Below are positions 973 to 47,494 of a stretch of DNA of 64,000 nt, one piece after another (the first letter of the stretch is position 1; each line of letters opens with the position of its first letter). The DNA is from Deinococcales bacterium. Lineage in GTDB: Bacteria; Deinococcota; Deinococci; Deinococcales; JAAFIG01. Below the pieces are notes generated by a model. The model made no database searches and was not told the DNA's origin. It worked only from the letters and a program-made list of their open reading frames with translations. The DNA is taken from assembly GCA_031414595.1 (NCBI GenBank), contig JANNVX010000086.1, forward strand, positions 48,686 to 112,685. Reading direction: 5' to 3'. Position numbers and translations under genes: made by a program.

Positions 973-1692
973 ATGAAAAACGTGTTGAAATTTGGTTTAG
1001 TTGGAATCGCCGCCCTCGCCCTCAGCAGCACCCTGACCAACAGCACTGCCCAAGGTCGTTTGGTGTTTGACGGCACATATGCTGTCAGTGGTAAAAACCC
1101 AGATGGTAGCGCCTACGCTGGAACAATGACGATTAGCCCTTATGGTGATGGCTACCGTATGCTCCAAGTTTATGGCAGCACCACCTACCGTGGCATTGGC
1201 AATGACGTTGGTGATTACTTGGCTGGTGCTTATTTGTCTGAGGGTGAACCAACTGTTACTTTGTACCGTGTTTCCGCCGCCAATACCTTGTCTGGTTACT
1301 GGCAAGATTATAGCAGCACCAAAGAAGGTACAGAAGAAGCCACCCTTGCCAGCCGTGCATTTTCGTTTGTGCCTAGCGTCCCAGTTGCCAACACATGGGA
1401 TTACAGTGGCTCTTACGCAATTAAAGGCACAAATCCAGATGGTAGTGCTTATACTGGCAGCATGATTCTGACCACCTACGGTGATGGCTACCGTGCATCG
1501 TTTGCCAGTGGCGGAGTTGCTTTGCGTGGAATCGCCAATTACATTGGTAACAACTTAGCCATCGCTTGGTTGACTGGCAACATCCCAAGTGTCAGCATTT
1601 TTACTGGTAATCCACGTACTGGCAACCTGACTGGTTACTGGCAGGATTACAACAGCCTTAAAGAAGGCACAGAAACCGCCACTTGGCGCTAA
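973..1692 (+). CDS. Secreted two-repeat beta-rich protein, paralog 1
   Basis: Sec signal peptide, two internal repeats GxYxxxGxNPDGSxYxGxMxI...GDGYR...LxGYWQDY...EGTE, and an RBS. Confidence 0.85.
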   Translation: MKNVLKFGLVGIAALALSSTLTNSTAQGRLVFDGTYAVSGKNPDGSAYAGTMTISPYGDGYRMLQVYGSTTYRGIGNDVGDYLAGAYLSEGEPTVTLYRVSAANTLSGYWQDYSSTKEGTEEATLASRAFSFVPSVPVANTWDYSGSYAIKGTNPDGSAYTGSMILTTYGDGYRASFASGGVALRGIANYIGNNLAIAWLTGNIPSVSIFTGNPRTGNLTGYWQDYNSLKEGTETATWR

Positions 1693-1741
1693 AGTCCCCA
1701 AATCCTCTTGGGTTTTCAATGCACTAACATCATGGAGTTCT

Positions 1742-2464
1742 ATGAAAAATATTTTCAAATTTGGTCTAGCAGGAATTGCTGCTGTCGTTCTTAGCAGCAC
1801 CCTCACCAACAGTGCTGCCCAAGAACGATTGCAGTTTGCTGGGACGTACAACATCAAAGGTAAAGGCACGGATGGCACAGCCTATACTGGTACAATGACG
1901 ATTGCTCCGTATGGCGATGGCTATCGTCTGGCACAAAGATTTGGCGACGAAACTTACCGTGGTATTGCTACAGATATAGGCGATAACTTGGGTGTGGCAC
2001 TGCTCAGTGGCGGTAAGCCCCAAGTGACGATTTACCGTGTCACAAGTGGCAACACCATGACTGGCTTTTGGCAAGATTACGACAATCCCAAAGAAGGCAC
2101 AGAAGAAGCCACTGTATCAGGAGCTACTGCTTTCTCGGGTGCTTCAAAAGTGCTTGCCGCCGCAACTTGGAACTACAGTGGTACATATGGCATCAATGGT
2201 AAAAATCCAGATGGCAGTGCCTACACTGGAACAATGGTTGTGTCCGACTACGGGGCTGGTTACCGTGTCAGGTTCACCTCTGGTGGCACAACGTGGCGTG
2301 GTATTGCCACCTACATCGGAAGTTACTTATCAATCGCTTGGCAAGCTGGTGGCATACCCCAAGTTTCGGTTTTTGCGGGCAATCCAACCACTGGCGAACT
2401 CAAAGGTTATTACCAAGATTATGACAGCCTGAAAGAAGGCACAGAAACTGCAACCTTGAAATAA
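1742..2464 (+). CDS. Secreted two-repeat beta-rich protein, paralog 2
   Basis: Same architecture and motifs as 973-1692. GGAG RBS. Confidence 0.85.
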   Translation: MKNIFKFGLAGIAAVVLSSTLTNSAAQERLQFAGTYNIKGKGTDGTAYTGTMTIAPYGDGYRLAQRFGDETYRGIATDIGDNLGVALLSGGKPQVTIYRVTSGNTMTGFWQDYDNPKEGTEEATVSGATAFSGASKVLAAATWNYSGTYGINGKNPDGSAYTGTMVVSDYGAGYRVRFTSGGTTWRGIATYIGSYLSIAWQAGGIPQVSVFAGNPTTGELKGYYQDYDSLKEGTETATLK

Positions 2465-2476
2465 CGATGTGGCTCG

Positions 2477-2510
2477 AGACCTCGAAAAAAGCGTACTTTT
2501 CGGGGTCTTT
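2477..2510 (+). terminator. Probable intrinsic terminator after paralog 2
   Basis: Stem AGACCTCGAAAA...TTTTCGGGGTCT followed by T-rich sequence. Confidence 0.55.
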
Positions 2511-2544
2511 ACTTATTCAAGTGGGCAATTTTTGAAGTTTCAAT

Positions 2545-2658
2545 AGTTCGTCTCACGTTTGTGTGACGCTCGATGAGTATGCTGATGCGACGCTCATGCG
2601 ACGCTCATGCGACGCTCCAAAGAATAAGGTGTGGCTCGAGCAGTACCAAGGAGAATTT
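2545..2658 (+). promoter_or_regulatory. Upstream regulatory region, copy 2, with three perfect 11-bp repeats ATGCGACGCTC
   Basis: (ATGCGACGCTC)x3 at 2585-2617. Otherwise near-identical to 870-972. Confidence 0.7.
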
Positions 2659-3378
2659 ATGAAAAATATTTTGAAATTTGGTTTAGTTGGAATCGCCGCC
2701 TTCGCATTCAGCAGTAGCCTGACCACCAGTACCGCCCAAAGCCGTTTGATGTTTGATGGTGAATACAGGGTAACGGGTCTAAACCCTGACGGTAGTGATT
2801 ACGGCGGGGCAATGACCATTGCTCGTTATGGTGATGGGTATCGCATTACCCAAGCCTTTGGTAGCGATACCTATCTTGGAATTGGCAATGATATGGGCGA
2901 CTACTTAGCTGGGGCTTTTATTTATAATGGCAAACCAGTTGTTAGCTTGTATCGTGTTATCGATGCCAACACCTTGTCTGGTTTCTGGCAAGAATTTGAC
3001 AGTACCAAAGAAGGTCAAGAAAAAGCAGTCCTTAACAATGCCACATTTTCGTTAATTCCAGCTGCCCCTGTTGCAACCACCTGGAATTACAGTGGTACTT
3101 ATGGTATCAAAGGCACTGCTCCCAGTGGTGCGGCATATACCGGAACGATGGCGCTGACAAACTATGGTGATGGCTACCGTGCTTCTTATGTCAGTGGTAC
3201 GACAACTTGGCGAGGAATTGCCAGTTACATTGGTAAGTACCTAGCAATTTCTTGGCAAGCAGGAAATAATGTTCAGGTTTCGATTTTTGAAGGCAATCCA
3301 CGTACTGGCGACCTCAAAGGCTACTGGCAAGATTACAATAGCCTAAAAGAAGGCGCAGAAACCGCAACACTAAAATAA
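2659..3378 (+). CDS. Secreted two-repeat beta-rich protein, paralog 3
   Basis: Start moved to ATG 2659 (AAGGAG RBS; MKNILKFGLVGIAA matches paralog 1). Confidence 0.85.
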   Translation: MKNILKFGLVGIAAFAFSSSLTTSTAQSRLMFDGEYRVTGLNPDGSDYGGAMTIARYGDGYRITQAFGSDTYLGIGNDMGDYLAGAFIYNGKPVVSLYRVIDANTLSGFWQEFDSTKEGQEKAVLNNATFSLIPAAPVATTWNYSGTYGIKGTAPSGAAYTGTMALTNYGDGYRASYVSGTTTWRGIASYIGKYLAISWQAGNNVQVSIFEGNPRTGDLKGYWQDYNSLKEGAETATLK

Positions 3379-3487
3379 GAAACCAGCCCTCGAGACTCCA
3401 GAAACATAATTTTTTGGAGTTTTTGCTCCCGCCAACGCAAAACAAATAAGCGCTGACTCGAGTACCACAAGTACCACTCGGAGGCTT

Positions 3488-4243
3488 ATGAAAAATATGT
3501 TCAAGTTCGCTTTGGCAGGTATCGCTGCCATTATTCTCAGCAGCAGCTTAACCACCAGCACTGCTCAAGGTCGTTTGGCATTTGAAGGAACGTATGCCGT
3601 AACAGGTAAAACCCCAGATGCGGCTGCCTACTCTGGTACAATGACCATCGTGCCTTACGGACAAGGCTACCGTATTACCCAAGTTTTTGGGATTTATACT
3701 TATTACGGAATTGGTACAGCCGTGGGCAATAATCAAGTAGGGGACTTTTTTGTAGCCGCTTTTCTGCACGAAAACCAATCAAGTTTGAGTCTGTACGCGG
3801 TCACGGCTGCCAATACTTTATCCAGTGTTTGGCAAGATTATGACAGCACCAGACGCGGCATAGAACAATCTGTTTTAGCGAACCGTAGTTTTTCAGTCAT
3901 TCCAAGTCTGCCTGCCCAGAACAATTTGGATTACTCTGGAACGTATCGGGTTGCGGGTACGGACTCAGGTGGTGTGGCATATTCAAATTATGTTTACGTC
4001 TCGCGTTCAGGCAGTGGTTACATCGCACAGCGTTACTACCAGCGTTATTACGCGAACAACGACACTGCACTTTTTGGCGTTGGAGGCAAACTTGATGGGT
4101 TTCTTGTTTTTGCTTGGAATTACAACGGTGTACCAAGGATCTCGGTTTACGAAGGCAATCCTGATGTGAATGGTAAAATGGTTGGTTTTTGGCAATCGTA
4201 TGATTCTCTAAAAAGAGGTTCAGAATCGGTCTACCCAGAATAA
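3488..4243 (+). CDS. Secreted two-repeat beta-rich protein, paralog 4 (divergent)
   Basis: Same signal peptide and repeat skeleton, with insertions (NNQV, YYQRYYANND). GGAGG RBS. Confidence 0.85.
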   Translation: MKNMFKFALAGIAAIILSSSLTTSTAQGRLAFEGTYAVTGKTPDAAAYSGTMTIVPYGQGYRITQVFGIYTYYGIGTAVGNNQVGDFFVAAFLHENQSSLSLYAVTAANTLSSVWQDYDSTRRGIEQSVLANRSFSVIPSLPAQNNLDYSGTYRVAGTDSGGVAYSNYVYVSRSGSGYIAQRYYQRYYANNDTALFGVGGKLDGFLVFAWNYNGVPRISVYEGNPDVNGKMVGFWQSYDSLKRGSESVYPE

Positions 4244-5628: not shown

Positions 5629-6663
5629 ATGGCTTCGTTGGATTTTGACTTTGAGAAAAAAGTGTTCTTAGAATTTTATGATTCTCATTTAACAAAATTA
5701 CTTGGATTTGTTGAAAAAATAGTAGATACACTTCAAGACTTAGTTAAAGAATTACCTGAATCTGATGGCTTTATGTTTTTGGGACGAGTCAAAGATAAAA
5801 ATGAATGTATCGAAAAATTTCTCCGAAAATACAAAAATGATCTTGAAGCAAAGCGTGAAGAATATACAATCAAAGATTCTATTTCAGATTTGGTTGGTTT
5901 TAGAATTGTCTGCATTTATGTAAATCAAATTGATTTAATCAAAAAAGCACTTATTGATGAATTTGAAATGCTCGAAGAAACCAATAAAATCGAACAAATT
6001 CAAGCAACTGAAAATACTTTTGGTTATCAGGCTTTGCATATGGATATGAAGTTGAGTCAAAATTATTTACAGATACGAGAATACAAGCAGTTTTCTGGGT
6101 TGCAATTTGAAATTCAAATCAGAACTATTATTCAAGATGCTTGGAGTGTTGTTGACCATAAGATCAAATACAAAAAAGAGATCCCCATTACGCTAAAACG
6201 AAAAATTAATGTCCTATCTGCACTTTTTGAACTAGCAGACCGAGAATTTATGTCCATTAAAAACGAAAATACGTTTTTAATACAAGCCAATACGCAAATG
6301 ATTTCTAATGCCATTGCTAACCAGAACCCGTCTAACTTAGGTTTAGATATTGTTTCTTTTACGGGTTTTCTGCGAAGTAAATTTCCTGATGCAACCTTTA
6401 AGGTTGAAGCGATAGAAAGATTTTTTAATGAATTGCAAGCCAAGAATGCTGACCTAAGTCTTGCTGACTTGGTTTTGTTATATGAGACAAATTATGACTT
6501 GGTGAAGCAATTTCAATTAGAATACAAGTTAAATTTTAATGCTTTTACTTTTTTGCGGCATTCCCTTTATCTCGCAGACAAAAACACCTATGCCTTGCTT
6601 TTGAGAGAATATCAAGTAGTAAAACTAAACCACTGGTTAGAAAACGAAAAACCGCCACCTTAA
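5629..6663 (+). CDS. RelA/SpoT-domain protein (small alarmone synthetase-like) with C-terminal extension
   Basis: Motifs GRVKxxxxxxEK, DLVGFRI, GYQALH and EIQIRTIIQDAWSVVDHKIKYK. AT-rich gene. ATG 5629 follows GGGGA. Confidence 0.85.
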   Translation: MASLDFDFEKKVFLEFYDSHLTKLLGFVEKIVDTLQDLVKELPESDGFMFLGRVKDKNECIEKFLRKYKNDLEAKREEYTIKDSISDLVGFRIVCIYVNQIDLIKKALIDEFEMLEETNKIEQIQATENTFGYQALHMDMKLSQNYLQIREYKQFSGLQFEIQIRTIIQDAWSVVDHKIKYKKEIPITLKRKINVLSALFELADREFMSIKNENTFLIQANTQMISNAIANQNPSNLGLDIVSFTGFLRSKFPDATFKVEAIERFFNELQAKNADLSLADLVLLYETNYDLVKQFQLEYKLNFNAFTFLRHSLYLADKNTYALLLREYQVVKLNHWLENEKPPP

Positions 6664-36931: not shown

Positions 36932-37546
36932 ATGCCTAAAGCCGATTACAACCACCTTTATCCACTCTGTGAAGCTATTGCTGCTTGGTTACATCCTCAT
37001 GCAGAAATCGTGATTCATGACCTAGCCACAGATACCATAGTTGGTATTTGGAATAATTATTCTAAACGCAAAATTGGTGATTCCAGTCTGATAGATCATG
37101 AAATTCAACTCGAGAACAACCAAGAAGTCTACGGACCGTATGAACGTACCAACTGGGACGGCAAACGCCTAAAAAGCATCAGTAGTGTAATCAAAAATTC
37201 CAACGGTCAACGCATTGGGCTGCTTTGCATGAACTTTGATATTACCAAGTTTGAAGCCATACAAACCTTCCTCGAGACCTTTACTCGCACCACCGCCGCC
37301 ATTCCCGCAGCCTTAATCGAACTTGATTGGCGGGAACAAATCCATTTAGCCCTAAGCAGTTACTTGCAACAACAAAACACCACCTTAAATTCCATGACTC
37401 GAGAACAAAAAATCCAAGCCGTTCGTAGCCTTGACCAGCAACACCTTTTTGCCACTCGTAACGCTGCCCAGCACGTCGCCAGAATCTTGGAAGTCTCGAG
37501 GGCAACTGTTTACAATTGGTTAAATGCCTCAAGGAGAGAATCATGA
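36932..37546 (+). CDS. YheO/DauR-like PAS-HTH transcriptional regulator
   Basis: EIVIHDL, SKRKIGD, GLLCMN and C-terminal VSRATVYN HTH. Confidence 0.9.
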   Translation: MPKADYNHLYPLCEAIAAWLHPHAEIVIHDLATDTIVGIWNNYSKRKIGDSSLIDHEIQLENNQEVYGPYERTNWDGKRLKSISSVIKNSNGQRIGLLCMNFDITKFEAIQTFLETFTRTTAAIPAALIELDWREQIHLALSSYLQQQNTTLNSMTREQKIQAVRSLDQQHLFATRNAAQHVARILEVSRATVYNWLNASRRES

Positions 37547-38655
37547 ACTTAAAAACTTTTAGAATCGAAAAATACTACGCCAAGCACGAATTTAGTGCAA
37601 AATACATGCTCTCGAGTTCCGATGCCGAGTCGCGCACTATTGCCGAGCTACTGGCATTTGAAACAGGAGCAAAAGAACATTTTGAGACCATGCACTTAGG
37701 CTACACCGAATCGGCTGGCGCACCTGATTTACGCCAAACCATTTCGACCATTTACAGCCAAATCTCAAGTGACGATGTGCTGGTAATGTCCAGTGCCGAA
37801 GAAGGTATTTTTGTTTTTTATAACACCTTACTTGGCGCAGGTGACCATGCGATTATCGAAAGCCCTTGTTATGAATCTGGTTTAGAACTGGCTCGAGGTA
37901 CGGGCGCAGCAGTGAGTCTTTGGCAACGCCATTTTGAAGATGGCTGGGCGCATGATTTAGACGCACTAAAAGCACTGATTCGTCCAAATACCAAAGTGAT
38001 GTACTTAAATTCACCATCGAATCCAACGGGGATCAACATGAACCGCAAAGTCATGCAGGCAGTCATGGATTTAGCAAAAGAACATAAGATAATTGTTTTG
38101 TGTGACGAGGTTTACCGCGAACTCGAACACGACCCTGCAACTATTTTACCTGCGGCTTGTGATTTATACGAAAATGCTGTATCGCTAGGCTCAATGTCAA
38201 AATCTTACGGACTGCCCGGACTGCGGCTAGGGTGGCTCGTGACCAGAAACCCTTCGCTACTCGAGAAATTCCTGCATTTTAAGTGGTACACCACAATCTG
38301 CTCCAGTGCGCCATCAGAATTCCTGAGCAACTTAGCCCTGCGCTACCGCCACATTTTGCTCGAGCGTAACCGAGCCATTGTGCAGACCAATTTGCCGCTT
38401 CTGGAAGCCTTTTTGCAACGTCAAGCAGCCTTTTTTGAGTGGGTCAAACCAGATGCCAGTCCAATTGGATTTCCAAAAGTACACCAAGGAATCAATGTGG
38501 ATCAGTTCTGCGAAGAAATCGTGACCAAAACCAGTGTGCTTTTATTGCCCGGCAGTGTTTACGACCAACCTCAGCATCTGCGGATTGGCTATGGTCGAGC
38601 CAATATGCCCGAGGCATTAACCATTCTCGAGACCTACTTAGATGGTTTGAAATGA
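37543..38655 (+). CDS. PLP-dependent aminotransferase class I/II
   Basis: Motifs NPTG, DEVY and SKSYGLPGLRLGW. ATGA overlap and RBS. Confidence 0.9.
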   Translation: MNLKTFRIEKYYAKHEFSAKYMLSSSDAESRTIAELLAFETGAKEHFETMHLGYTESAGAPDLRQTISTIYSQISSDDVLVMSSAEEGIFVFYNTLLGAGDHAIIESPCYESGLELARGTGAAVSLWQRHFEDGWAHDLDALKALIRPNTKVMYLNSPSNPTGINMNRKVMQAVMDLAKEHKIIVLCDEVYRELEHDPATILPAACDLYENAVSLGSMSKSYGLPGLRLGWLVTRNPSLLEKFLHFKWYTTICSSAPSEFLSNLALRYRHILLERNRAIVQTNLPLLEAFLQRQAAFFEWVKPDASPIGFPKVHQGINVDQFCEEIVTKTSVLLLPGSVYDQPQHLRIGYGRANMPEALTILETYLDGLK

Positions 38656-39569
38656 GGATTGTCTCAGCTAAAGAGATTCAAGCCGTGATGCAGCTTGCAG
38701 ATTTAGCCACTCCGCTAGAAAATGCCTTCAGAGCCTATTCCAAAGGTGATACAAGCGGCTCACTTGGTTTTTTGCGCCCCAAGGGTGGCGAAGTCCACAT
38801 CAAAAGTGGATTTATACAAGGCAGCAAAATCTTTGCGGTTAAAGTCTCGACAGGATTTACTGCCAATGCCACACAGGGCTTAGCCATTTGGGATGGTCTG
38901 GTGATGGCATTTGATGCCAATACTGGCGCACCTGTGGCACTGATACAAGATGGTGGCTTACTGACCGATTGGCGTACTGCAATGGCTGGCGCAGTGGCAA
39001 CCCGGGCTTTGGCGCGAAAAAATGTGCGAACCCTTGGCATTGTCGGCACTGGTATCCAAGGGTACTACCAACCTCTTGCCCACGCAGCAATGCTCGAGTT
39101 TGACGAACTCCTCATTTGGGGACGAAACCCAGAAAAAGCGATTGCCCTAAAAACAAAACTTAAACTGCAACTCGAGCATAAAAAGATTCGAGTATGCAGC
39201 AAACTCGAGGAGCTTGTACAACAAAGCGAGATTCTAATCACTGCCACCAGCAGTTTCGAGCCACTGATTAAGCACGCTTGGGTGCAAGCAGGCACACACA
39301 TCACAGCCATTGGCGCAGATGACGAACAAAAACGCGAACTCGAGCCAAGTTTGATCGAACGAGCCGATTTAATTGTGGTGGACTCAAGAACAGCCAACCA
39401 ACAATACGGCGATTTTCAAGGTCTAAGCCTTAAAATGCTTGAACTGGGCGAAATTCTCGAGCAACCAGAACTAGGACGCAGTTCAGATTCGCAGGTCACC
39501 ATTGCAAAACTGATTGGGCTTGGGGTGCAAGACCTTGCTGCCGTGGAAACGCTGCTTGAGAAAATCTGA
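38652..39569 (+). CDS. Ornithine cyclodeaminase/mu-crystallin family protein
   Basis: Motifs LTDWRTA, GTGIQG, HITAIGAD and GLGVQD. ATGA overlap. Confidence 0.9.
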   Translation: MRIVSAKEIQAVMQLADLATPLENAFRAYSKGDTSGSLGFLRPKGGEVHIKSGFIQGSKIFAVKVSTGFTANATQGLAIWDGLVMAFDANTGAPVALIQDGGLLTDWRTAMAGAVATRALARKNVRTLGIVGTGIQGYYQPLAHAAMLEFDELLIWGRNPEKAIALKTKLKLQLEHKKIRVCSKLEELVQQSEILITATSSFEPLIKHAWVQAGTHITAIGADDEQKRELEPSLIERADLIVVDSRTANQQYGDFQGLSLKMLELGEILEQPELGRSSDSQVTIAKLIGLGVQDLAAVETLLEKI

Positions 39570-39616: not shown

Positions 39617-40363
39617 TTACTTCTGCTCGAGGACACCTTTTTCTGGGGCAGCACCTTCTAAGCTGACCAAAAAATCAGAATAAGCTGGAAAGGTATCCAG
39701 CACCCAAGTCTGAAATGCCCTGTCTAAGTTAAAACCAGTGCCAATAGCAAAAACCACCAGCACCACACCAAAAACCCGTTGAACTTTACTTAAATTGTTC
39801 ATCAACCATCCTGCTCGAGTCAGTAATTTTCGTCCACCAAGCATGACGGCAAGCATTGGAATGGCAGTGCCTATCGAAAAACCAAGCGTGACAATAAAGG
39901 CTTGGGCAGTAACCGCATTTGATAGTGCCAGCGTAATGACACTTGCCATGATTGGACCAACACACGGAGTCCAGAGCAGTCCTAGGGTTGCACCAACCAC
40001 CATCCCACCCGCAAAACCATCGTTTTTTCCTTGCCCAAGACTGCTCAGATTGCCCATTGCCTGACTCGAGAAGCGCTCGTAAATGGTGTGTAATTGCGGT
40101 ACGCACAAGACCAGCCCAAACATCAAGAGTAAACCGACACTGACCAAACGTAAGGCATCGGGTGAGACCCCAAGAGCTTGAACGATACCCGACAAAAACA
40201 AGGTAAAGACCGTGAACGACGCAATAAATCCAGCAATAATGCCGTAAGGGCGTGATTTCCCACCGATTGAACCAGACAGCAAAAACGGCAGTACCGGCAG
40301 CACACACGGCGAAGCAACCGTTAAAATACCAGATAGAAATGCAAAAAAAGTTGTGGTTAGCAT
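39617..40363 (-). CDS. CcdA/DsbD-type cytochrome c biogenesis membrane protein
   Basis: SPCVLP and WTPCVGP motifs. Confidence 0.9.
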   Translation of the reverse strand: MLTTTFFAFLSGILTVASPCVLPVLPFLLSGSIGGKSRPYGIIAGFIASFTVFTLFLSGIVQALGVSPDALRLVSVGLLLMFGLVLCVPQLHTIYERFSSQAMGNLSSLGQGKNDGFAGGMVVGATLGLLWTPCVGPIMASVITLALSNAVTAQAFIVTLGFSIGTAIPMLAVMLGGRKLLTRAGWLMNNLSKVQRVFGVVLVVFAIGTGFNLDRAFQTWVLDTFPAYSDFLVSLEGAAPEKGVLEQK

Positions 40364-40420
40364 AAAACTCCAAAAAAAACGAAGGTTAGCTCGAGGAGGC
40401 TCAACCTTCGTTTTTACAAA

Positions 40421-40810
40421 TTACTTGGTTTTGGTATTGACAAGTAGCTCGTCTATGCCGCCACCAGACCATTTTTTAAGTTCAACACCTTTAGCATCCA
40501 CAAAAACAAAACTGTGTTGATAAGTGATTTTGTACTTGGTCTTCAGGGCAGTTTCGGTGTCGTAATCGGTCTTAAAAATCATCACATTCTCTGGGATTTT
40601 CTTCAAGTTCTCGTTAAAGTTCTTATCGGCAGCACGGCAGCTTGGACACCAACTGGCAGCAAAAAACAAGACTCGTTTTTGGCTACTGGCTTTATCGAAA
40701 GCCTCTTTGCTATAAGCCACATAATTTTCGCTCTTCATCATTGTGTCGCTTTGTGCCAGCGCCACCGAAACACCTAAAAGAGCCACCAAGCCAAGCATCA
40801 TTTTCTTCAT
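40421..40810 (-). CDS. Exported thioredoxin-family protein
   Basis: GGAGG RBS, signal peptide and WCPSC. Confidence 0.85.
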   Translation of the reverse strand: MKKMMLGLVALLGVSVALAQSDTMMKSENYVAYSKEAFDKASSQKRVLFFAASWCPSCRAADKNFNENLKKIPENVMIFKTDYDTETALKTKYKITYQHSFVFVDAKGVELKKWSGGGIDELLVNTKTK

Positions 40811-40887
40811 AAATCCTCCAAAATTGTTCTCGAGTTTGGGTTTTCTCGAGATATTTAATTTAGTTACGCAAGTCTGGTAAAAAAAGT

Positions 40888-41415
40888 TCAACGCCCCAAA
40901 TCATGAACACCGATTTCACGCAGGTAATCTCTAAAGTCCAAAGTATTCATGCTGCCCAGCACAGTACGGCGCACAATGCCGTTCGCGTCTATAAAATAGG
41001 TGGTTGGAATGGCTTGTATACCATAACGATTCGCCACGTCTCTGGTGGGTTCGGTACTCCCTTGGCTGTCTGGGTCGGTCAGGACAGTAAAGGTGTATTT
41101 GCTGTCGCGCATGAATTTAAGACTGGTTTCTCGAGGTTCAGAAATTGCCACAGCCAAGAACTCGACTTGGGCTTTATTGCGAAGCCAAACTGTGTGTAAG
41201 CCCGGAAATTCGCCTCGGCAAGGTCCACACCAAGAAGCCCAGAAATTTAGCACAACTGGTTTACCCTTAAAATTCTCGAGCTTAACGGTTTTCCCTTCAT
41301 TTGAGGTTAGTAAAAACTCTGGGGCAGCTAAATCCAGTAATACCAGACTTTCCCGTGGGGCAGCACTTGAAAGACCAGTCAAAGACAAAGCAAGAGCAAA
41401 CAACCATTTTTTCAT
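40888..41415 (-). CDS. TlpA family disulfide reductase
   Basis: NFWASWCGPC, IPTTYFID and a signal peptide. Confidence 0.9.
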   Translation of the reverse strand: MKKWLFALALSLTGLSSAAPRESLVLLDLAAPEFLLTSNEGKTVKLENFKGKPVVLNFWASWCGPCRGEFPGLHTVWLRNKAQVEFLAVAISEPRETSLKFMRDSKYTFTVLTDPDSQGSTEPTRDVANRYGIQAIPTTYFIDANGIVRRTVLGSMNTLDFRDYLREIGVHDLGR

Positions 41416-41516: not shown

Positions 41517-41582
41517 CTATCAGAGGAGACTGAACTCGAGAACATCAATTCAGAATTTGAAGGCATGGGTCAGGTGCTTTAA
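41439..41582 (+). pseudogene. Truncated scpB 5' fragment (47 codons)
   Basis: MQRMTKETILEAEETPVLEGTNAELE matches the ScpB N-terminal extension. TATAAT upstream at 41423. Confidence 0.7.
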
Positions 41583-41749
41583 TGCCTTATACTTGCGCCG
41601 CCCTTAATCGTGTGCATACTTAAAAACAGACCGCGAATAAGCGAGTTATTGCTTAGATCATGCTCTAGTTGCAACAAGACCTGATCCAACTTTTCCAAGT
41701 GGTCATAGGCTTCGGCTCTAAACTCGCCCATGAAGGCTGCCAGATTCAT
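41579..41749 (-). pseudogene. Truncated CheA-type Hpt domain fragment
   Basis: MNLAAFMGEFRAEAYDHLEKLDQVLLQLE...FLSMHTIKGGAS stops just after the phospho-His motif. Confidence 0.7.
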
Positions 41750-41888: not shown

Positions 41889-42860
41889 TTACTTAAAGAT
41901 TGCACTTTGGGCTTTTACACCCCAGAAATAGATTTCCTTTTTACTCGAGAAACTCGTAATTAAATACTTCCCATCAGGTGTAAATGCCATTTGTATGATA
42001 TAGCCTTCGCCAAACTTAAATACTGATTTATCCGCAGACCAGACTCGTTCACCAGTTGCTAAGTTAATGAGTTCTAAAGACACCCCAGTTGATTTAGCGA
42101 ACAAAGTATTTGATTGATTAAATTCCAAGTAACCACAACCCCTAGGAATTTTAAGGGCTGTTTTTTTGACTCCAGTTAAGGCATCAAACGTTAGTAATTC
42201 TTCATCCTTACAAACGTACCAAGTTTTACCGTCGGGTGAAAAATTATTTGCCTGACCACCTTCGATTAACACAAGGATTTTACCATCTTGAAAATTTGTT
42301 AAATACGATGCCTGATTTCTAATTTGAGTCGAATAAGTATTGACCGAAGAACTACTCTTAAAGTATGTGATAAAAGAAGCTGTTTTAGCCTCCCAATAAG
42401 AAGTTCTTAAATCACTCGAGAATCCGCCTAGTGAATAAGTATTGTAGCTACCAATGATAGTTGAATTATCAAAATTAGTTTCAAAATAAGTCAGTATTTT
42501 ATCTGAGGGACTACTTTGCGTGGCATTGTCGTCTATATTTTCCAGTATAACTCCACCACTTTTTGCATTGACCAAAATTGACTTGCTATCCTTTGACCAA
42601 ATATTAGTATTGTTATCGCTTAGCAAATCAGAAGAAAAGACCTTTAGGCTTAATGAAAAAGTATTGATGTCATAAATAAATCTGTTCAAATTTGGAAAAT
42701 CAACAATCAATAACTTCGTACCATCAGGACTGAGCTTAATGTCGTTTATTCTTTCAGGTAAGGTAATTTTTTGAATTATCTCGAGTTTAGAAAATTTACT
42801 GCCAGAGCTACAAGAAAATAGCAATATCGGAACACAAGAACACAGAAAAAGTTTTTTCAT
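41889..42860 (-). CDS. WD40/beta-propeller lipoprotein
   Basis: Lipobox LLFSC and blades LSPDGTK, WSKDSK, FSPDGK, FTPDGK. AT-rich. Confidence 0.75.
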   Translation of the reverse strand: MKKLFLCSCVPILLFSCSSGSKFSKLEIIQKITLPERINDIKLSPDGTKLLIVDFPNLNRFIYDINTFSLSLKVFSSDLLSDNNTNIWSKDSKSILVNAKSGGVILENIDDNATQSSPSDKILTYFETNFDNSTIIGSYNTYSLGGFSSDLRTSYWEAKTASFITYFKSSSSVNTYSTQIRNQASYLTNFQDGKILVLIEGGQANNFSPDGKTWYVCKDEELLTFDALTGVKKTALKIPRGCGYLEFNQSNTLFAKSTGVSLELINLATGERVWSADKSVFKFGEGYIIQMAFTPDGKYLITSFSSKKEIYFWGVKAQSAIFK

Positions 42861-42893
42861 AATACCCTTTGAGACAATATAACAGAGATTTTC

Positions 42894-43583
42894 TTACTTT
42901 TGATTTAAGACATAGACTTTTGGTTGCTCGAGGTCAAGTGTACCAAAGAAGTAAAGTGGTAATCCATAGAATAATTCATATTTACCATCTGTTCGATAGG
43001 GCTTACCGAAGCCGAAGCCCATAGCTTGTTGTGGAGCTTCTGGTAGCTTGTTAAATTCCCATTCCCAATTATCGCTAAACATCTGCATTAGAAAAGTAAA
43101 TCGACTTCCCATATATTCCTTAGGGGAATCATCTAATATGCGCCAATTTGGACGACCACCGATACGTGTTGTATTGGTACTTGAGTTTCTCAGTGCTTGT
43201 AAATCTAACTTTTCATGCTTTAATACACGTATATAATCTATTCGCATTTGACTTATTTCCCCTTGTTCAAAAACGAGGATGCAAAATCTTTTCTCGTAAT
43301 CATTAAGAAAATAGTCTGGTAATCCCAAATGTCGTCCATTTGGGGGCATTAGAGAAAAATTATCATCGGCACATGATGTGCAGGCAAAAATAGCCATAAC
43401 TTTCCCTTTCCACTCATGTTTTTCTGGAAATTGAACTTGAAAAAAGAAAGTCATTGGTGCGCCACATAGTTTGCATTTTGGCAACTGTAGATGTTCGGGT
43501 AGATTGGGATAGCCACCTATGTGTGTCAAACTCTTCTGGTCTTGTGAATCTACAGGTAATCTAACTAATTCATAAACTGGCAT
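42894..43583 (-). CDS. DUF1963/YwqG-like protein, putative immunity protein
   Basis: Twice-repeated IGGxP motif and PKCKLCGAPMTFFFQ. First gene downstream of the nuclease toxin. RBS present. Confidence 0.65.
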   Translation of the reverse strand: MPVYELVRLPVDSQDQKSLTHIGGYPNLPEHLQLPKCKLCGAPMTFFFQVQFPEKHEWKGKVMAIFACTSCADDNFSLMPPNGRHLGLPDYFLNDYEKRFCILVFEQGEISQMRIDYIRVLKHEKLDLQALRNSSTNTTRIGGRPNWRILDDSPKEYMGSRFTFLMQMFSDNWEWEFNKLPEAPQQAMGFGFGKPYRTDGKYELFYGLPLYFFGTLDLEQPKVYVLNQK

Positions 43584-43606
43584 AAATATCCTTTCCTATT
43601 TGTGTA

Positions 43607-43634
43607 GCCCAAGGAGAGAATTCTCCCCTTGGGC
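43607..43634. other. Strong stem-loop between the toxin and immunity genes
   Basis: GCCCAAGGAGAGAA/TTCTCCCCTTGGGC, a near-perfect palindrome. Confidence 0.65.
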
Positions 43635-43642
43635 AGTGTATT

Positions 43643-46600
43643 TTAGATATTAGGGTTAGCAAAAACCCTTGAAACAGCAATCCCATTTGTTGTGATGATG
43701 TACTCAAGTTCACTTGGTCGTTTCGGATATGTAGGATCTGTGTACTTCAGTTTAACAGTTAGTGAAACAGTATCTCCAGCACGCACAGAAGCTGCCATAT
43801 TTCTCTCTAAAGCAGATAATGCGCCCGTATTGAGTGTACTTCGGATAGGCACAATGTTATTTGAACGCGATCCTCCAGCCCCACCTAATACATACGCTAG
43901 AATATGTCCCGCCTGATCTAGGCTATCACCAGTTACTACGTCAATTGCACCATTTGCCACTGTCTCACGTCTTGCGGTTCTCGTTGGATTTGTCCCACCA
44001 TTGATGTATGTACTATCTAGTACAGCTGTAACTTGGGTTATTAAATCTCCAACTTTGGTTACTGTTGTTGGACAAAGATTTTTTGGTACTGCTCGGGTTT
44101 GAAGGGTTATTTTTCCTGGCGATGCGGCTGCCGCCAATCTCTTTGCAACACAGTACACGGAGGCTTCAATATCTGCAATTCGGACTTGTGCTTCTATATT
44201 CAAAGCATCGTATCTTGGGTCTTGAATATCATCATTAATTTTGCCCAGTGCGGCTTTGGGTTGTAATTGTAATTCATCTGCATAAACTTTCACGGAGGCT
44301 TCAACTCTATCGTTACATTCTGTTCCGCAATCATTGATGCCCTTAACAACTTTCCCAAAGGCTGTGTCTAAATCTGTCTTTAGCCCATCAACTGTTTTCC
44401 CAGCGTCTACACCTTCTTGAATAATCTTTTCAATGCCGTTAGAAACACCTTTTGTACCTTGCTTGCTTGGCTTGAAGACCTTGGCAAACTTGGCGTATAG
44501 CTCGCCTGTAACTGGTGAAATATCAGCAATTACGCCAACGCCAGCCAGTACAATCATTCCTACACCTAGGGTTTGGCATTCTTGGGTTTGACAGGCTTTC
44601 ACCGTCTCGAGGAAGTCCTTACCACTGCCAATAAAGGGTATGAAACTGGTTGTAAAGTTCTTTGCGTCTTCCCAGAAACCATCTTTTAAGTAACTGTTCC
44701 ATTTTAGAACAGCTGTGGCGGAGTCATTGGTTAGGATATGTCCCCAGAAATTGGCAGTCACGGCTGGAATTGGGTACTTAAAATCTGGAATATCGGCAAT
44801 ACCTACTGGTGGGGTGTAGGTTGCAGTGACAGTGCTGCAATTATTGAGCAGTGCATTGTCTGGCATTTTGTTAATCCAGTCGCTGTTGTCTGTACCGCAG
44901 TTGGGATTGCCGTACATGCTAATTTGGGTTAAATCTAGCTTATCGCCGTTTAAGGGGTAGGCATTGCTTGGCAGGGTGACTTCAATAAATGCTTTGCCGT
45001 TTTCCATGACACAATCGCCGCAGTCAGATAACAGTGACGGGTTGGTGGTTTTGAAGGCGGCTTTGAAGTACCCGTTAGCGGTGGTCATCAGTGCGCCAGT
45101 GTCATCCACAGCGTATACAGGCACTTTGAATTTAATGTTGCCGTTATTTACATCACTTTGGCGTAAGCGCACGGTTAGCATCAATTCGGTTGTGCCGTTA
45201 AAGTTGCCTTTGTTTTCAGTGGTGTACGGGGTGGCTTTGTCACCTGGTATCATTTTGTCTGGTAGTACAGCCATATAGATTTTGGGTATCCGAAGCCCAC
45301 CAATTACATCAAAACGGTAGGTTTGGTCAAATAGACTCGAGGTCACATGGAATTGACTATTGCCTTGGGCTTGTAGCACAGGTACATCGGTGCTACGAAT
45401 TCGCACAAATTCGCATAAATCTGGGTTATTGGAGTTCTCGAATTTCAGGTGAGGGGTTTGAACTTGGTTGTAATAAGTCAGTACAGAACTGCAAAATACA
45501 TTCCTAAAATTACTTCCATTGCTCCAAGCATTCCAACGGGTAGAAACTCCCGGGAAAGCAGCGCTTTTGTGCATCACATATGGAAAGTAATCAATGTAGT
45601 TTGTACCCGCTTGTGGACGGGCTGCATATGGGCGAATCACCGAACGAGAGGCAGGTAGATTATCGAGCGGGTCAACGGTTTTGGCTCGAGTCAAACTGGG
45701 GTAGTTAAAAGCTGGGCGAAAGAAGGCATTTTGTGGTTGTGCGGTAATGTCTTGGGCTTTGGCTACCACATAAGCACGGTACGTGTCGGTTTGACCTTTA
45801 TTATCGGTCACGGTGAGTTTAACAATGTGTTCGCCGGCATTAAAGGTATGGGTGGTTTGTGCGCCAGTGGCTGTGGTGTTATCGCCAAAATTCCAAGTGT
45901 AAGTTAAAGCGCTGCTGCCTGTGGAGGTTACTGCATCGAAACTCACATTAAACGGAGCAATCCCAAAACTTGCGCCTGAGCCAAAGCTGCTCGAGAGTAC
46001 AAATTTGGCTTTTGGCTTGGGTTGCCAACGGGTAAGCCAAGTTTCGTTTTGGTAGGCAACACTACCGCCGCCACTGGTGCGGTTGAGCTTTCCACGAATC
46101 AGAGGACGATTATCAATGATTTTGAGTTTCACCACGTAAGTCCCTAGGGTTGGGTAATTGTGGCTGACTCTCGAGCCTGTGCCTGTAGTGTTATCGCCAA
46201 AATCCCATTGGTAGGCAAAACCGGGCAGTGGGTCGCCCGCGTCAAAATTGGCTGTATCAGAACCATTTAGGTTCAGGTTTGGCGAGATATTCTGAATTTC
46301 TGGGAGGATGGCTACTTGAACAGTTTTTTGTTGAGTTCGTCCTGTACTGTCGGTTACGGTTAGATTGGCGTTGTACAAACCCGGATTGGTGTAATTATGA
46401 CTCACAAATGGGCTGGTACTGGTTGTGCCGTCCCCAAAATTCCATTGGTACGTTAAACCTGTTCCGCCAGAGGCACTAGCATCAAAGGTCATGTTTGAAC
46501 CAGCCGTTCCTATGGGTGTCTCGAGGTCAAACGAGGCAAGGGCAGCATCTTCAACGTACCAGCGAACTCTGGGTATGCGAATTGTGTTTAATGGCGTGGC

Positions 46601-47494
46601 AACATCGGTGTCTGTTCCTACCAAGGCGACTTCGCTTGCACCTAGGGCTTGCCCTCGAGTTATTGCACTGGCAGTGTTTTCTTCGGCTCGAGTGACACGG
46701 TTGTTACTTTCGCTGGTCAGTAAAAAATTAAAGGTGAGTTTGAGTGGTAGGTTTGGGAATGTTCCAGCTACTAAAAAAGCGGGTGCTTTGAAGGTCACGG
46801 ATACCGTACCAACATTACACTGGTCGGTTGGACTGGTTTTGCAACTCACGGCTGGGATGACTTTAGAGGTGCTGGATTTTCGGGCTGCAAAACCGTAGTT
46901 TAGAATTGTGTCATTGACAGAAAGTCCAATACCACTTGTAATGGCATCAGCTTTTATTTGGGTGGCTTCGGTTTCGCTAAAGGCTTGAAAATCGGCTGTA
47001 TTAGCATTAACCAGTCCTGTGCTGTACGACAAGTAATTGGATGGTTCAAAGTTACGAGCGGTTTGTACATCGGTGATGGTTTGGTTATTCCAACCAATAA
47101 TACTGGTGAGGGCAGTTCCACCTATTTCGGTTTGGTTGCGGTTTCTGGCAACTAAAGAAAGGTTAGCAAGTGGGTTACTGCTGTTGTTGGTGACTTTGTA
47201 ATTAGCGGTAAAAAACCAGCGTTCTGGACTCGAGTAAAGGCGCATGGTGTAACTGGCTTGTGAGAAACTAACATCGGTGGTGGTTGGGAAAGTGGATTGG
47301 GTGCTGAGTTTTTGGCTGGTTTGATTCTCGAGTGGTACGGGTAGATTTTCGCCTTCTTGTTTACCAACGTACATTTGAAGGGCAACTGTGCCAAGTGGTC
47401 TTGAATTGCTGGATTCGGGCTTAACTGGGTTGGGTTGACCACAGGCAAAAAGAGTTGAAGCAATCAAGAGCGAGATGAGCAGGTTTCTTTTCAT
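43643..47494 (-). CDS. Lipoprotein with 3 PKD domains and C-terminal DNA/RNA non-specific endonuclease (putative polymorphic toxin)
   Basis: Lipobox LFAC, three W[ND]FGD PKD repeats, a pre-toxin-like FIPFIGSGKD segment, and a C-terminal His-Me nuclease DQAGHILAYVLGG...NNIVP...LN.G. Confidence 0.8.
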   Translation of the reverse strand: MKRNLLISLLIASTLFACGQPNPVKPESSNSRPLGTVALQMYVGKQEGENLPVPLENQTSQKLSTQSTFPTTTDVSFSQASYTMRLYSSPERWFFTANYKVTNNSSNPLANLSLVARNRNQTEIGGTALTSIIGWNNQTITDVQTARNFEPSNYLSYSTGLVNANTADFQAFSETEATQIKADAITSGIGLSVNDTILNYGFAARKSSTSKVIPAVSCKTSPTDQCNVGTVSVTFKAPAFLVAGTFPNLPLKLTFNFLLTSESNNRVTRAEENTASAITRGQALGASEVALVGTDTDVATPLNTIRIPRVRWYVEDAALASFDLETPIGTAGSNMTFDASASGGTGLTYQWNFGDGTTSTSPFVSHNYTNPGLYNANLTVTDSTGRTQQKTVQVAILPEIQNISPNLNLNGSDTANFDAGDPLPGFAYQWDFGDNTTGTGSRVSHNYPTLGTYVVKLKIIDNRPLIRGKLNRTSGGGSVAYQNETWLTRWQPKPKAKFVLSSSFGSGASFGIAPFNVSFDAVTSTGSSALTYTWNFGDNTTATGAQTTHTFNAGEHIVKLTVTDNKGQTDTYRAYVVAKAQDITAQPQNAFFRPAFNYPSLTRAKTVDPLDNLPASRSVIRPYAARPQAGTNYIDYFPYVMHKSAAFPGVSTRWNAWSNGSNFRNVFCSSVLTYYNQVQTPHLKFENSNNPDLCEFVRIRSTDVPVLQAQGNSQFHVTSSLFDQTYRFDVIGGLRIPKIYMAVLPDKMIPGDKATPYTTENKGNFNGTTELMLTVRLRQSDVNNGNIKFKVPVYAVDDTGALMTTANGYFKAAFKTTNPSLLSDCGDCVMENGKAFIEVTLPSNAYPLNGDKLDLTQISMYGNPNCGTDNSDWINKMPDNALLNNCSTVTATYTPPVGIADIPDFKYPIPAVTANFWGHILTNDSATAVLKWNSYLKDGFWEDAKNFTTSFIPFIGSGKDFLETVKACQTQECQTLGVGMIVLAGVGVIADISPVTGELYAKFAKVFKPSKQGTKGVSNGIEKIIQEGVDAGKTVDGLKTDLDTAFGKVVKGINDCGTECNDRVEASVKVYADELQLQPKAALGKINDDIQDPRYDALNIEAQVRIADIEASVYCVAKRLAAAASPGKITLQTRAVPKNLCPTTVTKVGDLITQVTAVLDSTYINGGTNPTRTARRETVANGAIDVVTGDSLDQAGHILAYVLGGAGGSRSNNIVPIRSTLNTGALSALERNMAASVRAGDTVSLTVKLKYTDPTYPKRPSELEYIITTNGIAVSRVFANPNI

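Follow-up and report, generated by a model that had tools for sequence, protein, structure and literature searches.

The locus described here lies in a 64,000-nucleotide stretch of contig JANNVX010000086.1 from a Deinococcales bacterium; this whole stretch is referred to below as the window. It consists of three consecutive open reading frames (ORFs) on the minus strand, headed by a 1283-residue protein, P0001, that begins as a predicted lipoprotein and ends in a predicted nuclease. A first-pass annotation, made from the sequence alone, had read the group as a toxin, an immunity gene and a second lipoprotein. The three ORFs lie where that annotation had placed them, all on the minus strand.

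43643-47494 (-): P0001, putative toxin ORF, 1283 amino acids
42894-43583 (-): P0002, candidate immunity protein, 229 amino acids, without a signal peptide, with a predicted TYPP/YwqG fold
41889-42860 (-): P0003, beta-propeller-like lipoprotein, part of one low-GC cassette with P0002 and the tip of P0001, 323 amino acids, lipobox LFSC

The stop codon of P0001 is followed by P0002 after 59 nucleotides, and P0002 by P0003 after 33. Gaps of this size suggest that the three genes may be carried on one transcript. When the other 52 scanned ORFs of the window were searched against Pfam, they proved to be ordinary chromosomal genes, including those for ScpB, an amidase, thioredoxin/DsbD-type proteins, TrpBA, branched-chain amino-acid ABC transport, DnaX and SurE. 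No tRNA genes are present in the surroundings of the locus. As had been noted in the first-pass annotation, markers of the familiar toxin systems are lacking: in P0001 and the 52 other ORFs, Pfam returned no RHS, LXG, CdiA, MafB or type VI secretion system (T6SS) family. The same searches found no secretion genes of type V (T5SS), type VI or type VII (T7SS) systems and no CdiA, Rhs/PAAR or LXG/WXG trafficking domains.

P0001 can be divided along its length as follows.

47441..47494 (-): signal peptide and lipobox, residues 1-18, read in the translation; L-F-A-C ending at Cys18
46520..47440 (-): N-terminal domain, residues 19-325, conserved in homologs, no Pfam family
45728..46519 (-): three PKD domains, residues about 326-589, with PKD_4 and PKD matches
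44708..45727 (-): central carrier region, residues 590-929, no Pfam family, partly an Ig-like beta-sandwich in the model
44303..44707 (-): pre-toxin region, residues 930-1064, with the FIPFIGSGKD motif, a hydrophobic segment at 975-993, helices, and C1056-G1057-x-x-C1060 at its end
43643..44302 (-): variable putative toxin tip, residues 1065-1283 plus the stop codon, with a linker of about 100 residues and then the Endonuclea_NS_2 His-Me nuclease core
43706-43987 (-): Endonuclea_NS_2 core, residues 1170-1263, the Pfam match to PF13930

The protein starts with MKRNLLISLLIASTLFAC, a typical lipoprotein signal in which the lipobox L-F-A-C places the cysteine at position 18. L15 and C18 are almost invariant in an alignment of 10 homologs, which bears out the lipobox of the first-pass annotation. 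The three PKD domains that had been read from the sequence were also recovered, with PKD_4 matching in three stretches (E value 2.4e-44) and PKD at 8.9e-32; W-[ND]-F-G-D motifs occur at residues 351, 430 and 534. Three stretches, N-domain (residues 20-325), central (590-940) and pre-toxin (930-1065), have no Pfam family at E ≤ 10 save a chance-level match to Hph (E 0.07), so that the first-pass description of the central region as unknown still holds. A scan against NCBIfam gave nothing significant, and an Atlas search with the N-domain was uninformative (best score 0.84).

The N-domain was also seen apart from the rest of the carrier. P0011, a protein of 955 residues, has the lipobox and N-domain alone in common with P0001 (66% identity over 33% of the query), and the body that follows is unrelated, with a weak match to Exo_endo_phos (E 8.6e-4). 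Because P0011 has this domain on a different body, the N-domain can be regarded as a module that surface lipoproteins of this lineage reuse.

The pre-toxin region, which is helical in the AlphaFold prediction, is kept in all 8 full-length homologs, and its terminal C1056-G1057-x-x-C1060 is invariant. The most hydrophobic 19-residue stretch of P0001, TLGVGMIVLAGVGVIADIS (residues 975-993, Kyte-Doolittle mean 1.94), falls within the segment that had been quoted beforehand as hydrophobic and pre-toxin-like. The known pre-toxin family PT-TG (PF14449) had no Pfam match at E ≤ 10 in this region of P0001, nor at E ≤ 5 in seven family members. Comparison of the region with three PT-TG segments by hhalign gave a probability of 76.7% and a pairwise E value of 2.1e-5, a weak likeness over 35 columns.

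The tip was assigned with considerably more support. Endonuclea_NS_2 (PF13930) scores 39.3 bits with the whole of P0001 and 43.2 bits with the tip alone, against a cut-off of 27. A profile built from 41 tips matches EssD (8guo_B), the T7SS nuclease toxin of Staphylococcus aureus, at an E value of 7.2e-15 over about 140 residues, and in this alignment the D-x-G-H, D-N, N-R and E positions line up. These two results uphold the His-Me endonuclease tip proposed in the first-pass annotation; direct phmmer searches of the tip against PDB sequences gave chance matches only. In the alignment of 41 tips, G1196-H1197 and N1222 do not vary at all, and N1213 and E1230 are kept in at least 90% of them. The residues given for Tox-NucA in the family description of Zhang et al. 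2012 (PMC3482391) are 'GH, N, N, E', with which G1196-H1197, N1213, N1222 and E1230 agree. Because this catalytic set is kept across the tips and matches that of Tox-NucA, the nuclease is predicted to be active. The tip thus looks like an EssD-like His-Me (Endonuclea_NS_2 / Tox-NucA) DNase that is seemingly active.

When searched exhaustively, the 219-residue tip retrieved 225 proteins at E ≤ 0.001. Pfam domains were scanned in 85 of the 150 listed matches, namely 25 that were picked as best and longest and the 60 remaining ones of at least 250 residues; the 64 shorter ones were left out. PF13930 was present in 24 of the 25 picked proteins, together with PT-HINT in 6, RHS in 6, PT-TG in 2 and PKD in 4, and PT-VENN was seen in none. 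The corresponding numbers for the 60 others were 58 with PF13930, 14 with PT-HINT, 3 with RHS, 1 with PT-TG and 2 with PT-VENN. In most matches the stretch corresponding to the tip lies at or near the C-terminus (exceptions include P0220, P0230, P0272, P0307 and P0316). Judged by these domain matches, the same nuclease tip sits on other polymorphic-toxin carriers, of the RHS, PT-HINT, PT-TG and PT-VENN kinds. The P0001 carrier family itself has distant members in P0176, P0178 and P0185, which are about 30% identical and whose matches include the pre-toxin motif FIPxxGxxxDLL.

Relatives of the carrier were sought with residues 1-1000 of P0001, and hundreds of generic PKD proteins were set aside. 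Nine relatives share the carrier: P0004 to P0010, P0028 and a protein from a further locus, L002. Their tips are not the same. By identity to P0001 in the search, they are P0004 (89%, AHH tip, E 1e-4), P0005 (83%, Endonuclea_NS_2, hereafter NS_2), P0009 (71%, EndoU), P0006 (66%, AHH), P0007 (60%, EndoU), P0008 (58%, NS_2), P0010 (49%, a tip without a Pfam family) and P0028 (31%, EndoU). The L002 protein also carries an EndoU tip, the Pfam family in question being EndoU_bacteria.

The change of tip is abrupt. When identity to P0001 was calculated separately for residues 19-1060 and for the tip (1065-1283), the values were 88 and 16% for P0004, 67 and 17% for P0006, 62 and 15% for P0007, 53 and 16% for P0009, and 49 and 12% for P0010. 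The two NS_2-tipped relatives, P0005 and P0008, retain 70% and 52% identity to P0001 in the tip. An alignment of eight sequences shows the carrier conserved up to C1056-G1057-x-x-C1060, with the break in identity falling between residues 1021 and 1065. A carrier that is kept and a tip that is swapped are the defining pattern of a polymorphic toxin. The first-pass annotation had asked whether all homologs keep one tip, and they do not: NS_2, AHH, EndoU and tips without a Pfam family are found on the shared carrier. It had also ascribed the system to Deinococcota. A pattern scan of genomes gave 53 matches, three of which encode relatives, and all three are in records named 'MAG: Deinococcales bacterium' (MAG, metagenome-assembled genome), which fits that assignment. 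The flanks of these three have no synteny to the window or to one another and contain no secretion genes.

P0002 was next to be placed by family. Its own match to DUF1963 falls below Pfam membership (19.3 bits against a cut-off of 23, residues 21-55 only), and 31 of the 51 members of its family match DUF1963 at E ≤ 0.01, the best at 1.1e-6. The sequence contains a duplicated unit, GGYP at 23-26 with Q49 and GGRP at 142-145 with Q167, and a CxxC pair, C37xxC40 and C68xxC71; across the 51 sequences the GGxP, Q and CxxC positions show either no variation or at least 90% conservation. A duplicated GGxP unit with a conserved Q and an optional CxxC pair are the features listed for the TYPP superfamily in its description by Burroughs and Aravind 2014 (PMC4275035). 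The model of P0002, built from 51 sequences, is confident (predicted local distance difference test score, pLDDT, 92.2; predicted template modelling score, pTM, 0.90). In a Foldseek search of the PDB with this model, Bacillus subtilis YwqG (1pv5) was the sole match at E ≤ 0.001 (E 2.4e-4, probability 1.00, TM-scores 0.55/0.49). On the model and the motifs, P0002 is a YwqG/DUF1963-like protein of predicted TYPP fold, on a divergent branch, much as the first-pass annotation had it. At the level of sequence, phmmer against PDB sequences gave chance matches only, the P0002 profile found only the zinc-ribbon-like RPC10 in the PDB (E 0.097), and tblastn against plasmids gave no match. P0002 has 50 homologs, and some relatives, among them P0140, P0142, P0149, P0153 and P0154, are in Bacillota.

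The gene that follows the toxin gene was compared at three loci. At L001 and L002, both EndoU-tipped, the toxin gene is followed by an ORF of 138 or 139 residues. These two ORFs are 38% identical to each other and have no relation to P0002. The downstream gene therefore changes with the tip across the window, L001 and L002, which answers the check proposed at the outset, whether downstream genes vary: P0002 follows the NS_2 tip, and unrelated ORFs follow the two EndoU tips. In addition, P0129, a 52% homolog of P0002, and the NS_2-tipped P0005 (83%) both come from a jgi source in which the longest contig is 7408 nucleotides each, and this suggests that P0005 and P0129 are on one contig. The position of P0002 after the toxin gene, the differing ORFs at the EndoU loci and the P0005/P0129 pair make a circumstantial case for P0002 as the candidate cognate immunity protein. 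Its lack of a signal peptide and its predicted TYPP fold, a protein-binding one, also speak for such a role.

L002 also carries two more small ORFs without a Pfam family, at 5789-6190 and 6223-6504 (+), after its putative EndoU immunity gene. The first was considered as a second copy of that gene and rejected, as it is unrelated in sequence. Both might be orphan immunity genes or might be unrelated to the system.

In the case of P0003, the lipobox LFSC, a weak PD40 match (22.7 bits) and a WD40-like feature score of 0.94 are compatible with the beta-propeller lipoprotein that had been proposed. No homolog other than P0003 itself was found among 1384 candidates, and since no homolog is detectable, P0003 is no conserved component of the system.

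The GC content at third codon positions (GC3) changes within P0001. It is 0.431 in the N-domain, 0.455 in the PKD domains, 0.476 in the central region and 0.400 in the pre-toxin region, and 0.269 in the tip. P0002 (0.296) and P0003 (0.299) are similarly low, and neighbouring genes range from 0.44 to 0.52. Because GC3 drops together in the tip, P0002 and P0003 relative to the carrier and the neighbours, these three appear to be a separately acquired cassette. At its far edge lies the following feature.

41579-41749 (-): truncated Hpt (CheA-like) gene fragment, a 56-residue ORF

This ORF matches positions 3-41 of the 84-position Hpt profile (E 3.1e-5). It is probably the remnant of a gene disrupted by insertion of the cassette, and as such a plausible scar.

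Ten cysteines of the toxin carrier are invariant in the 8-sequence alignment. Just downstream of the toxin cassette and on the same strand, at 39617-41415 (-) of the window, lie a DsbD_TM/CcdA-like membrane protein and two thioredoxin/AhpC-TSA-like proteins. A link of these neighbours to extracytoplasmic disulfide handling of the carrier is possible, as is coincidence.

These results make it highly probable that the locus encodes a polymorphic toxin of the Sec/lipoprotein-exported class together with its immunity protein, a system of known kind on a new carrier family. From the features above we infer lipidation, surface exposure, toxicity, immunity and a delivery route for the P0001 system, as follows. 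P0001 would be exported by Sec/Lsp and lipid-modified at Cys18, and a stalk of about 1000 residues (N-domain, three PKD domains and Ig-like central region) would present the C-terminal module. That module would comprise the conserved pre-toxin region, with its glycine-rich hydrophobic helix and CGxxC boundary, and an exchangeable tip. The tip, P0002 and P0003 would have been acquired together, as a module of lower GC, by recombination at the boundary between pre-toxin region and tip. The toxin, borne by the cell surface or by membrane that the cell has shed, would meet a neighbouring cell, where the hydrophobic pre-toxin segment may aid passage of the tip across the target envelope, or its release. 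The nuclease would then degrade DNA in cells without P0002, and P0002, remaining cytoplasmic, would bind the nuclease inside producer cells and their kin.

Several points weigh against this interpretation. No delivery machinery was found near P0001 among the 52 scanned ORFs of the 64-kb window, which offers no explanation of how the nuclease would enter a target cell. The operon is deduced from the gaps only: promoter-like sites (13, with 13.5 expected) and terminator-like sites (6, with 6.7 expected) occur at chance level. The pattern of tip-linked downstream genes comes from just three loci, those of the window, L001 and L002, and the linkage of P0005 and P0129 solely on the shared figure of 7408 nucleotides. 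The AlphaFold model of carrier residues 590-1065, made from 10 sequences, is of low confidence (pLDDT 54.8); residues of about 730-920 alone reach a pLDDT of about 70-80, as beta strands, and Foldseek with this model gave generic tandem-Ig matches only, with TM-scores below 0.2, which are little informative. As to P0002, TYPP/YwqG proteins are proposed as chaperone-like binders in the superfamily account of PMC4275035, where those passages name no immunity role, and a literature search on DUF1963 in a toxin context met no immunity role in the relevant passages, those of PMC4275035 included. The immunity families given for Tox-NucA in the family entries of PMC3482391 are Imm36, SUKH and NTF2, not TYPP.

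The gap in the delivery route leaves room for an alternative that deserves some weight, although it is considerably less probable than stalk presentation: delivery in the manner of the SitA toxins, with the toxin held in the outer membrane and passed on through vesicles or through the fusion or exchange of membranes. P0001 shares the SitA plan of a lipoprotein with an N-terminal family domain and a C-terminal polymorphic nuclease, and dedicated secretion genes were not found nearby, both of which favour such a route. Against it, a 1000-residue PKD/Ig stalk is typical of extracellular display. In addition, no TraA/TraB-like gene is evident from the Pfam annotations of the 52 other scanned window ORFs; TraAB sequences were not used as queries, and such genes could lie elsewhere in the genome.

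A different division of labour among the downstream genes is rather unlikely. The locus would still encode a polymorphic toxin, with P0002 serving its tip as a chaperone of TYPP type or as an adaptor for export, and with immunity supplied by P0003 or by a gene elsewhere. The chaperone-like protein binding proposed for TYPP proteins in the account of Burroughs and Aravind 2014 (PMC4275035) speaks for such a role of P0002, and P0003 is as low in GC3 as the rest of the cassette and, being a lipoprotein, could act at the envelope. However, P0002 occupies the canonical immunity position, 59 nucleotides after the toxin stop, and the EndoU loci have a different small gene in the same place. P0003 is a poor candidate for immunity in that it has no homologs, against 50 for P0002, and in that it is exported, whereas a nuclease acting in the cytoplasm has to be inhibited there.

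Least probable of all, and very improbable in itself, is that P0001 is a surface-anchored nuclease for scavenging extracellular DNA or for biofilms, with P0002 an intracellular inhibitor of mislocalised enzyme: the tip belongs to a Pfam family named 'DNA/RNA non-specific endonuclease', an exo-enzyme could well have a lipid anchor and a PKD stalk, and the neighbourhood is a housekeeping one, but unrelated tips (EndoU RNases and AHH nucleases) on near-identical carriers are unexpected for a scavenging enzyme, the tip is common to RHS, PT-HINT, PT-TG and PT-VENN toxins, and the tip with its downstream genes forms a separate low-GC3 module. An anti-phage defence reading was dropped, PADLOC having given 0 matches for P0001-P0003 and both EndoU-locus ORFs.

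Two further features of the window were observed away from the locus. At 973-4243 (+) there are four tandem paralogues of 239, 240, 271 and 251 residues, the last three sharing 51-67% identity with the first. All four begin with a sequence resembling a signal peptide, and within each a G-T-Y...NPDGS-Y-GTM...YGDGYR unit is duplicated; no Pfam family was found in any of them. The aminotransferase ORF at 37516-38655 (+) and the ornithine-cyclodeaminase ORF at 38439-39569 (+) overlap by 217 nucleotides. The true start of the latter is probably further downstream, its Pfam match beginning at residue 74.

A polymorphic toxin-immunity cassette of this class has precedents in principle. Zhang et al. 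2012 (PMC3482391) describe Sec/type II secretion system (T2SS)-class polymorphic toxins with lineage-specific N-domains, among them MAFB-N, MicroscillaN and APD1/APD2. As that class is set out there, it has in common with P0001 a signal peptide or lipobox, an N-terminus that is conserved and specific to the lineage, highly polymorphic C-terminal toxins, a downstream immunity gene and the lack of a dedicated secretion system nearby. P0001 differs in that its N-domain, central and pre-toxin regions have no Pfam family, and its PKD stalk is distinctive, the word 'PKD' being absent from the text of PMC3482391. The phyletic list for Tox-NucA in the same article is without deinococci; the three genomic relatives of P0001 are in Deinococcales MAGs.

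The SitA toxins of Myxococcus, as presented in PMC8546572, are lipoproteins in which an N-terminal escort domain, specific to each family, is joined to a polymorphic C-terminal nuclease whose site of action is the cytoplasm. They are delivered by TraAB outer membrane exchange, and the cognate immunity proteins are not transferred (PMC8546572). Compared by description, P0001 resembles them in its plan of lipobox, C-terminal polymorphic nuclease and downstream candidate immunity gene; it differs in phylum, in its much larger size with a PKD/Ig stalk, and in that no TraAB was noticed in the window. The suggestion of the first-pass annotation that the system is possibly undescribed can therefore be kept where carrier family, phylum and immunity fold are concerned and given up for the principle, as lipobox-led polymorphic toxins are in print (APD1/APD2 in PMC3482391 and SitA in PMC8546572, as described there). 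A literature search returned no paper combining a PKD domain, a polymorphic toxin and an immunity protein, though the supplements of PMC3482391 and PMC4275035 may list related contexts. No system of this type was evident for polymorphic toxins together with Deinococcus, as judged by the listing of papers only, and no description of interbacterial antagonism in Deinococcota was found in the literature searched.

A Sec/lipoprotein-only toxin raises the question of how a tethered protein of 1283 residues puts a nuclease into another cell through the unusual envelope of Deinococcota, and the pre-toxin module, with its hydrophobic helix and CGxxC boundary, is a concrete candidate for the entry step. 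A bolder proposal, which is doubtful at present, is that Deinococcales have an interbacterial weapon of their own, built on a lipid-anchored PKD/Ig stalk. The pre-toxin module would then be a new self-contained device for translocation and release that brings interchangeable nuclease tips into neighbouring cells and does without a dedicated secretion machine, and TYPP/YwqG a new immunity family against EssD-type DNases, present also in Bacillota. The exchangeable tips, in turn, make the carrier family a ready scaffold for the study of modular toxin exchange in cold-environment MAG lineages.

A known counterpart of the tip is EssD (EsaD) of S. aureus (PDB 8guo, 8gun), which has the same nuclease core. 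EssD is exported by a T7SS, whereas the P0001 tip is borne on a lipoprotein carrier, and EssD itself uses a DUF600 protein. P0002 shares with YwqG/DUF1963/TYPP proteins the duplicated GGxP...Q unit and the CxxC pair, and differs from them in its low Pfam score and its place directly after a toxin gene. To our knowledge, TYPP/YwqG proteins have so far been known only as ribosomal-protein chaperones and as bacterial proteins of 'unknown function'. If P0002 is indeed an immunity protein, this would be a first function for a bacterial branch of TYPP/YwqG, and EssD-type nucleases would gain a further immunity family. The family mainly tied to Tox-NucA in the entries of PMC3482391 is Imm36/DUF600, in contrast to the predicted TYPP fold of P0002. 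What this comparison leaves as new is thus the family of the carrier, the occurrence of such a toxin in this phylum, and the TYPP fold as a candidate immunity protein for EssD-type nucleases.

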